This document shows positions 7,636 to 8,829 of a stretch of 64,000 bases of DNA, piece after piece. The translations under genes and the position numbers were made by a program. This DNA comes from Escherichia coli (lineage in GTDB: Bacteria > Pseudomonadota > Gammaproteobacteria > Enterobacterales > Enterobacteriaceae), in the NCBI RefSeq assembly GCF_041248615.1, contig NZ_CP158426.1. One strand, given 5' to 3'. The first letter of the stretch is position 1, and each line of letters opens with the position of its first letter. The notes under the pieces are model-generated. The model saw only the letters and a list, made by a program, of their open reading frames with translations. It was not told where the DNA came from and did no database searches.

Positions 7636-8829
7636 CTAAAGCGCACCGGCCTTCTGGCGTGCGGTAACAAAGGTCAGTACGCCAGCGCAAAGGAGCAGCA
7701 CGCTACTCATAGCAAACGTGCTCTGCCAGCCAAGGCGGTCAAATACGATGCCTCCTGCTGTTGATCCAAGGGCGATGGAGAGCTGAATCACCGCGACCAT
7801 GAGCCCGCCTCCGGCTTCGGCGTTGTCAGGCAACGTACGCGCAATCCATGTCTACCATCCGGTTGGCGCGGCGGTGGCCAGCATGCCCCAGAGTCCTAAC
7901 AGCAGCGAGACCGTCCAGACGTGATGCCCGGTCAGCATCAGACCGATAGCAATGACGGCCATCAGTCCGGGTATGGCCATCAGCGTGGGGTAGAATTTTC
8001 TGTTGAGAAATGCCGAAACAACCAGCGTGCCAATAAAACCGGCCACGCCGATAATCAGCAAAATCAACGACAAGCCTAAGGAATTAACCCGTGTCACCGA
8101 CTCCAGAAACGGGCGCACATAGGTGAATAGTGCAAACTGCCCCATGAAAAACAGGCAGCAGGCTATCATGCCGACCACAACCATGCGGCGGCTAAATAAG
8201 CGGAATACCGCGCCACATGAAGTGTGGCTTTTATTCGCATCCATGCTTGGCAGGCTGATGCACTGCCAGATAAAGGCGACAACCGCGATGGGCACCAGGC
8301 ACAAGAAAGCGCCTCGCCATCCGACCGTAGCCCCCAGATAGCTTCCCAGCGGTGCGGCCACGACCGTCGCCAGCGCATTACCGGCGTTGAAAATTGCCAG
8401 CGCACGCGTGACCTGATGCTGCGGCACCAGACGAATCGCCGTTGCCGCTGACATCGACCAGAATCCGCCAATAGCCACACCAATCATCGCACGACCGACC
8501 ATATACATCAGATAACTGGAAGCCAGCGCAATAATAAGCCCCGATACGGCCATCAGAACCGTCATCCCCAGCAGCAGGAACTTACGATTCATCTTTCCAG
8601 CTAGCGTTGAAAGCGTCAGGCTGGTCAGAACCGCCAGCGCGCCGGAGATAGCAATCCCCTGCCCTGCCAGCCCCTCCGTCACGCCTAAATCGCGGGTAAT
8701 CGGCGTGAGCAGGCTGACGGGCATAAATTCAGAAGCAATCAGCACAAACACGCACAGGGTCATGGCAAAAATACCGCCCCAGTATGCGCGCTGATGATGA
8801 GGTGATAGTGTTTGGCTTAGTGTCGACAT
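7636..8829 (-). pseudogene. MFS transporter interrupted by an in-frame amber codon (TAG at 7852-7854)
   Basis: 325-aa ORF and 65-aa ORF are in the same frame, separated only by TAG; together ~395 aa, the size of a 12-TM MFS protein. Confidence 0.6.

Follow-up and report, generated by a model that had tools for sequence, protein, structure and literature searches.

Among the described exporters of Escherichia coli, two are the closest points of comparison for the gene considered here: the purine ribonucleoside efflux pump NepI (YicM) and the sugar efflux transporter SotB. The gene lies on the minus strand at positions 8829 to 7636 of a 64,000-nucleotide stretch of E. coli DNA (contig NZ_CP158426.1), which is referred to below as the window. 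With NepI its restored product shares an end-to-end alignment and the DHA1-type architecture of 12 transmembrane (TM) helices. With SotB it shares the exporter fold of the major facilitator superfamily (MFS), although the relationship is distant. The reading frame is broken by one stop codon, and this brings in a third comparison. The Prokaryotic Genome Annotation Pipeline (PGAP) calls "internal stop" pseudogenes in E. coli, in which there is a single in-frame stop, the coding sequence is otherwise intact and sister strains carry a full-length version. The present locus does not differ from these in any essential respect. Very probably, it is a real, lineage-specific nonsense pseudogene of an accessory NepI-like MFS exporter, in which the TGG codon for Trp326 has become amber (TAG).

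The best curated family match is NepI itself (NCBIfam NF007578), with residues 13-388 of the protein aligning to positions 15-389 of the 396-position profile. However, its score falls far short of the equivalog threshold (292.7 against 584 bits). Judged by its sequence, the protein is a NepI-like paralogue and not NepI. The NCBIfam model for SotB-type sugar efflux transporters (NF002921) gives 176.2 bits, which is also below its cut-off (401). SotB is the nearest relative with a solved structure (PDB 6KKI; E-value 8e-28 over query residues 8-363). A literature search for WP_000171074 found no papers.

One gene, one stop codon

The list of open reading frames (ORFs) and the sequence place a 325-aa ORF (7852-8829) and a 65-aa ORF (7636-7833) in one frame of the minus strand. 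Translated as a single frame from 8829 to 7636, the region has 397 codons, with the sole internal stop at codon 326 (...AAPTGW*TWIARTLPDN...), and then the natural stop TAG at 7638-7636. An earlier note on this DNA had described two same-frame ORFs parted by the TAG at 7852-7854, and this is borne out at those coordinates. The same note expected the joined product to be a transporter of about 395 residues with 12 TM helices. The helix count agrees with the structural model described below, whereas the length should be 397 residues. In the Trp-restored protein a single Pfam MFS_1 (PF07690) match, scoring 133.5 bits (gathering cut-off 33.4), runs from residue 24 to residue 355 and crosses the stop, and the 71 residues past the stop align with 120 homologues at their C-terminal ends. 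The two ORFs therefore belong to one gene and are not a chance juxtaposition. The TTG at which the 65-aa ORF begins was assigned mechanically by the ORF finder.

The window is 100% identical to the chromosome of E. coli NRZ14408 (NZ_LT599825.1), save for a 120-bp segment near thrW (11962-12081). There, RefSeq (through PGAP) tags the locus, R2K29_RS20345, as "MFS transporter, pseudo, internal stop". NRZ14408 is a published isolate, reported as resistant to carbapenems and colistin (Falgenhauer et al., AAC 2017).

What was the codon before it became a stop? The alignment of homologues, which the earlier note had asked for, gives a consistent answer. It comprises 120 clusters at 76-99% identity from Salmonella, Serratia, Klebsiella, Leclercia, Yersinia and others. 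Every one of them has Trp at position 326 and extends to query positions 393-397. Orthologues that naturally stop short were considered and rejected, since none of the 120 ends near residue 325; one 332-aa homologue has an internal deletion and a normal C-terminus. Intact E. coli alleles point the same way. Strain 1190 has TGG, and position 7853 is its single difference from the window within a 1,501-bp query. Isolate 362 (NZ_OW967178.1), whose complete genome is the closest, departs from the window at 7853 alone over positions 1-12022. In this comparison TGG (Trp326) is the ancestral codon, and one G-to-A transition made it TAG. The mutated base is window position 7853, A on the gene strand and T on the plus strand, or nucleotide 977 of the coding strand (G977A). 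The earlier note had proposed this same transition, and the orthologues do have TGG. However, it took its cue from the adjacent TGG codon, which is uninformative about the ancestral one. In other words, an in-frame stop stands where intact orthologues encode a residue and run on to a conserved C-terminus, as in a nonsense pseudogene. That the event is recent, as the note had also suggested, agrees with two facts: the 1,194 bp show no other departure from the intact allele, and a TGG relative is otherwise identical over 12 kb. A Dcm hot spot was considered as the origin of the mutation and ruled out, because the mutated C of the opposite strand sits in TCCACC and not in CCWGG.

The likely effect of the stop can be read from the restored protein as modelled with AlphaFold2 (mean predicted local distance difference test score, pLDDT, 81.8; predicted template modelling score, pTM, 0.81). 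DSSP assigns 14 helical elements in this model, and we read these as 12 TM helices that lie within residues 17-395. Residues 304-332, 337-366 and 368-395 make up the final three, and this puts codon 326 (7852-7854, minus strand) inside TM10. The part that is still translated, codons 1-325 (7855-8829, minus strand), covers TM1 to TM9 and about three quarters of TM10. The part that is now untranslated, codons 327-397 with the natural stop (7636-7851, minus strand), holds the end of TM10 (to residue 332), TM11 and TM12. By the model and the alignment, the truncated product has about 9.75 of 12 helices and is deprived of many invariant residues. The sequence of events would then be simple. The transition at nucleotide 977 turned an invariant Trp codon into amber in an accessory DHA1-like, NepI/SotB-related gene for a 12-helix MFS protein. 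Termination at codon 326 would give a 325-aa product whose C-terminal six-helix bundle is incomplete. This product presumably cannot form a working transporter, and the allele would almost certainly be null.

These numbers count from the ATG at 8829, which is not the start that RefSeq uses. The RefSeq coding sequence begins at an internal Met codon (Met23, at 8763) and has 375 aa. This would remove conserved residues 1-22, including the first six residues of predicted TM1. However, 85 of the 120 homologues begin in the region of residues 1-22, and this region is conserved in other genera, among them Salmonella, Yersinia and Leclercia. The first helix of the AlphaFold2 model begins at residue 17. 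Because residues 1-22 are conserved across genera and TM1 begins within them, the ATG at 8829 is better supported than Met23 and is the likely true start. In practice, the RefSeq start for this family probably truncates TM1.

Carriers, rival readings and other broken alleles

One alternative raised by the earlier note is that the stop is a sequencing or assembly error, with TGG in the true genome and the gene intact. The TAG-bearing 81-mer occurs exactly in just one of the 910 complete-genome records that hold the region, namely the source record. Taken alone, this is an error-like pattern. However, the truncated product was also looked up by exact match in a 15-billion-protein collection of NCBI and Logan assemblies. 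The 303-aa product (Met23 to Trp325, which is how a gene finder calls the TAG allele) is present on 19 contigs. NCBI carriers include GCA_014863425.1, GCA_025155495.1 and GCA_020005525.1, and Logan carriers include SRR34483818, SRR11318805, SRR20950737, ERR2935576 and SRR20950931. In all eight loci that were fetched, G977A is the sole change across the 1,194 bp of the gene. The 325-aa product from ATG 8829 and the 65-aa TTG ORF have no exact match in the collection, where only the 303-aa and 54-aa calls were found (the latter is an ORF in the tail of the gene, discussed below). Beyond the thrW-side junction the carriers differ from each other, the variants being no island, an integrase island and other islands. 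They are therefore not re-assemblies of one strain. A substitution error would not recur identically, yet this allele is shared by several distinct strains that were sequenced and assembled independently, that differ in their islands and that include a second haplotype background. Error is thus extremely unlikely, and the stop appears to be real in the organism.

The second haplotype needs some explanation. NRZ14408 and most carriers have the isolate-362 haplotype. The SRR34483818 contig, on the other hand, matches strain 1190, with the same G-to-A change as the only difference in 9,204 bp. Strain 1190 and the window have 131 differences in the compared region, but none between 7226 and 9018 other than the stop itself. 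The presence of W326* on two haplotypes would thus reflect either recurrence of the mutation or a recombination tract of no more than about 1.8 kb. Neither would be surprising, because the look-ups were exact and made in a vast collection, and because the gene offers only 31 sites at which a transition creates a stop (20 of them in Trp codons).

Granted that the stop is real, could a working transporter still be made? One way would be suppression or read-through of the amber codon to give the full-length protein. The remainder of the gene is perfectly intact, and low-level natural read-through of UAG occurs in E. coli, both of which favor this idea. However, recency is enough to explain the intact remainder and, to our knowledge, E. 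coli has no pyrrolysine machinery. The earlier note had also called for a check of amber-suppressor tRNA alleles, and at the main single-step loci (glnV/X, tyrT/V, serU, leuX and trpT) none was found in NRZ14408. Its Gln tRNA cluster, located by synteny and read directly, is wild type (TTG in glnU/W, CTG in glnV/X). In about 5,400 genomes, CUA alleles of tyrT/V and trpT are in no record, that of leuX is not present at full length in any record, and that of serU is only in the record of DSM 498, a different strain. The positive control, a supE (glnV CUA) query, returned 155 exact records; the 40 matches listed were all K-12-type strains, mostly laboratory ones. This makes read-through very unlikely. 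A split transporter, in which a 54-aa C-terminal fragment with its own start codon would join the 325-aa N-terminal one to form a working protein, is a shade less credible still. There is a precedent, as split halves of LacY can assemble into a working protein. There is also a good Shine-Dalgarno-like GGAGG (7812-7808, minus strand) 7 nt upstream of an ATG at 7800-7798 (Met344), and gene finders call the resulting 54-aa ORF (7800-7636), which is putative only, once the MFS gene is broken. However, the GGAGG is merely the coding sequence of a conserved AGGG motif. Moreover, both fragments would be without residues 326-343. This stretch comprises the last part of TM10, the loop to TM11 and the first part of TM11, and the invariant W326, W328, L333, P334, E338 and G340-342 all fall within it.

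Some points do weigh against a recent null pseudogene, which nevertheless remains the preferred reading. The case for a real stop in NRZ14408 was built from assemblies. The window and the RefSeq record differ by the 120 bp at 11962-12081, and the window may be a sister sequence or another assembly version. The null state of the allele is deduced from topology and MFS architecture. Finally, the suppressor check covered the single-step amber alleles named above, whereas UAG could also be read by ochre suppressors, by a suppressor derived from tyrU or by suppressor tRNAs carried on plasmids or phages.

The MFS gene is also broken in other ways. A look-up of the 54-aa tail ORF in other E. coli revealed W325* (TGA) in SRR18965651, a 1-bp deletion at nt 964 in ERR2740778, a 1-bp deletion at nt 1024 in SRR36032802 and DRR003227, and 1-bp deletions at both nt 754 and nt 1024 in SRR2187197 and SRR2187182. 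The nt 1024 deletion falls in a GGAGGCGGG run and recurs across several sequencing runs. From these sequences, the MFS gene is evidently dispensable and appears to decay repeatedly.

Is decay all there is to it? What if inactivation of the exporter has been positively selected in some clinical lineages? This would refine the pseudogene reading and not conflict with it. W326* is on both the isolate-362 and the strain-1190 haplotypes, each carrier differing from its intact counterpart at this base alone, and there are at least four other disrupting alleles. However, ascertainment is biased, as the look-ups targeted this truncated product and the 54-aa tail among billions of proteins. The identity of the two haplotypes between 7226 and 9018 means that a recombination patch of up to 1.8 kb could move the allele invisibly. 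With only 31 transition-type nonsense sites, the same mutation should recur neutrally once samples are very large. Positive selection is therefore unlikely. The stronger proposal is that loss has been selected repeatedly in E. coli, with W326* arising independently on the two haplotypes and W325* and the frameshifts as parallel hits. This is slightly more doubtful again.

Neighboring genes and the thrW flank

The MFS gene is part of a LysR, alpha/beta-hydrolase and MFS module that sits between paoD and thrW. The module occurs in about 17% of complete E. coli genomes; the count for the MFS gene with its hydrolase-proximal flank is 913 of 5,426. The upstream neighbor is an intact alpha/beta-hydrolase gene on the minus strand (8905-10062; called as 8905-9963 by RefSeq). 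Divergent from it, on the plus strand, is an intact gene for a LysR-family protein (10228-11112), which is presumed to be the regulator of the hydrolase-MFS pair. On the other side, paoD (6500-7456, plus strand) is convergent with the MFS gene. Since the MFS gene has no further gene behind it on the minus strand, the nonsense mutation can have no polar effect and leaves other genes unaffected.

How the MFS gene is transcribed might depend on what separates it from the hydrolase gene. The stretch from the stop codon of the one to the start codon of the other holds a strong hairpin (8852-8889, minus strand; dG -28.6 kcal/mol, z -5.6), whose 13-bp GC-rich stem leads into UUUUAU. It is located about 25 nt before ATG 8829 and resembles an intrinsic terminator or attenuator. 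A promoter scan found no sigma-70-like site upstream of the MFS start, and nothing promoter-like follows the hairpin. MFS transcription may depend on terminator read-through or attenuation.

The hydrolase has a start codon problem of its own, with three competing starts that give 385, 378 and 352 aa (the RefSeq choice is 352 aa). By eye, the N-terminus of the 378-aa form (MKAFTRTLKTAMPTMLLFASLSGVTTMSYA/DST) looks like a Sec signal peptide, and the RefSeq start removes it. If this look is correct, it suggests that the hydrolase is periplasmic. Another short ORF follows paoD at about 7433-7513 on the plus strand ('VVLILAAGRGERF'). It begins MPAPVVLILAAGRGERF and has the glycine-rich look of the N-terminus of a MobA/MocA-type nucleotidyltransferase. 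Pfam gives no match, and the likeness is an unverified impression. Perhaps the ORF is a remnant of a cofactor-maturation gene that was truncated when the MFS module was placed, which is equally unverified.

At the other end of the module is the segment in which the window departs from the RefSeq record. The region 11962-12142 adjoins the tRNA-Thr gene thrW (12151-12226). Its first 120 bp (11962-12081) are neither in the RefSeq record nor in any related locus fetched. It contains two diverged 58-bp copies (11962-12019 and 12082-12139) with 62 bp between them. The 62 bases have no match in complete E. coli genomes. Together with the first 22 bp of the second copy (12023-12103), they match, base for base, the 3' end of an ORF. 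The contig that carries this ORF is 3.3 kb long and was binned as Segatella copri; it is possibly a mis-binned enterobacterial fragment. By reading of its translation, the matching ORF has a tyrosine-recombinase-like C-terminus (...RYAHLSAGHLTEHASKIDAIISRNGTNTAQ...). We read the thrW flank as two stacked remnants of integrase 3' ends, which would be scars of island integration and loss. The absence of the segment from the RefSeq record could be due to deletion between the 21-bp identical heads of the repeats, or to a different assembly version. The 3' part of thrW (12151-12177) itself comes in two forms among strains that are nearly identical. NRZ14408 has the canonical form (...CCTATTATCGGCACCA), and in isolate 362 and GCA_014863425.1 the T-arm has paired changes. 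Such a pattern would be compatible with att copies from islands having replaced the 3' end of the tRNA.

Some features further along the window are worth recording. The genes for release factor H (prfH) and an RtcB-family ligase, at about 20119-20673, are annotated as truncated or frameshifted pseudogenes, and the same is true in isolate 362. A lateral-flagella (Flag-2-type) gene cluster fills roughly 23000-63700. Within it, between flgA and flgM (about 42915-45632), the annotation shows genes for a DNA cytosine methyltransferase and a type II restriction endonuclease. The pair look like an inserted restriction-modification module.

Implications for the module

As a pseudogene, the locus is ordinary and was already annotated. 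What is new is the placement of the stop in TM10 and the population context, namely several carriers, two haplotypes and further disrupted alleles of the gene. The finding matters mainly for annotation: in NRZ14408 and related strains, this locus is best handled as a pseudogene. G977A is also a convenient lineage marker. Wider interest would arise only if selected, parallel loss were demonstrated. Because other lineages bear different disrupting mutations in the same MFS gene, the comparison suggests that the LysR-hydrolase-MFS module is dispensable in many settings. If repeated, selected loss were true after all, the module would be costly or antagonistically pleiotropic in clinical lineages.
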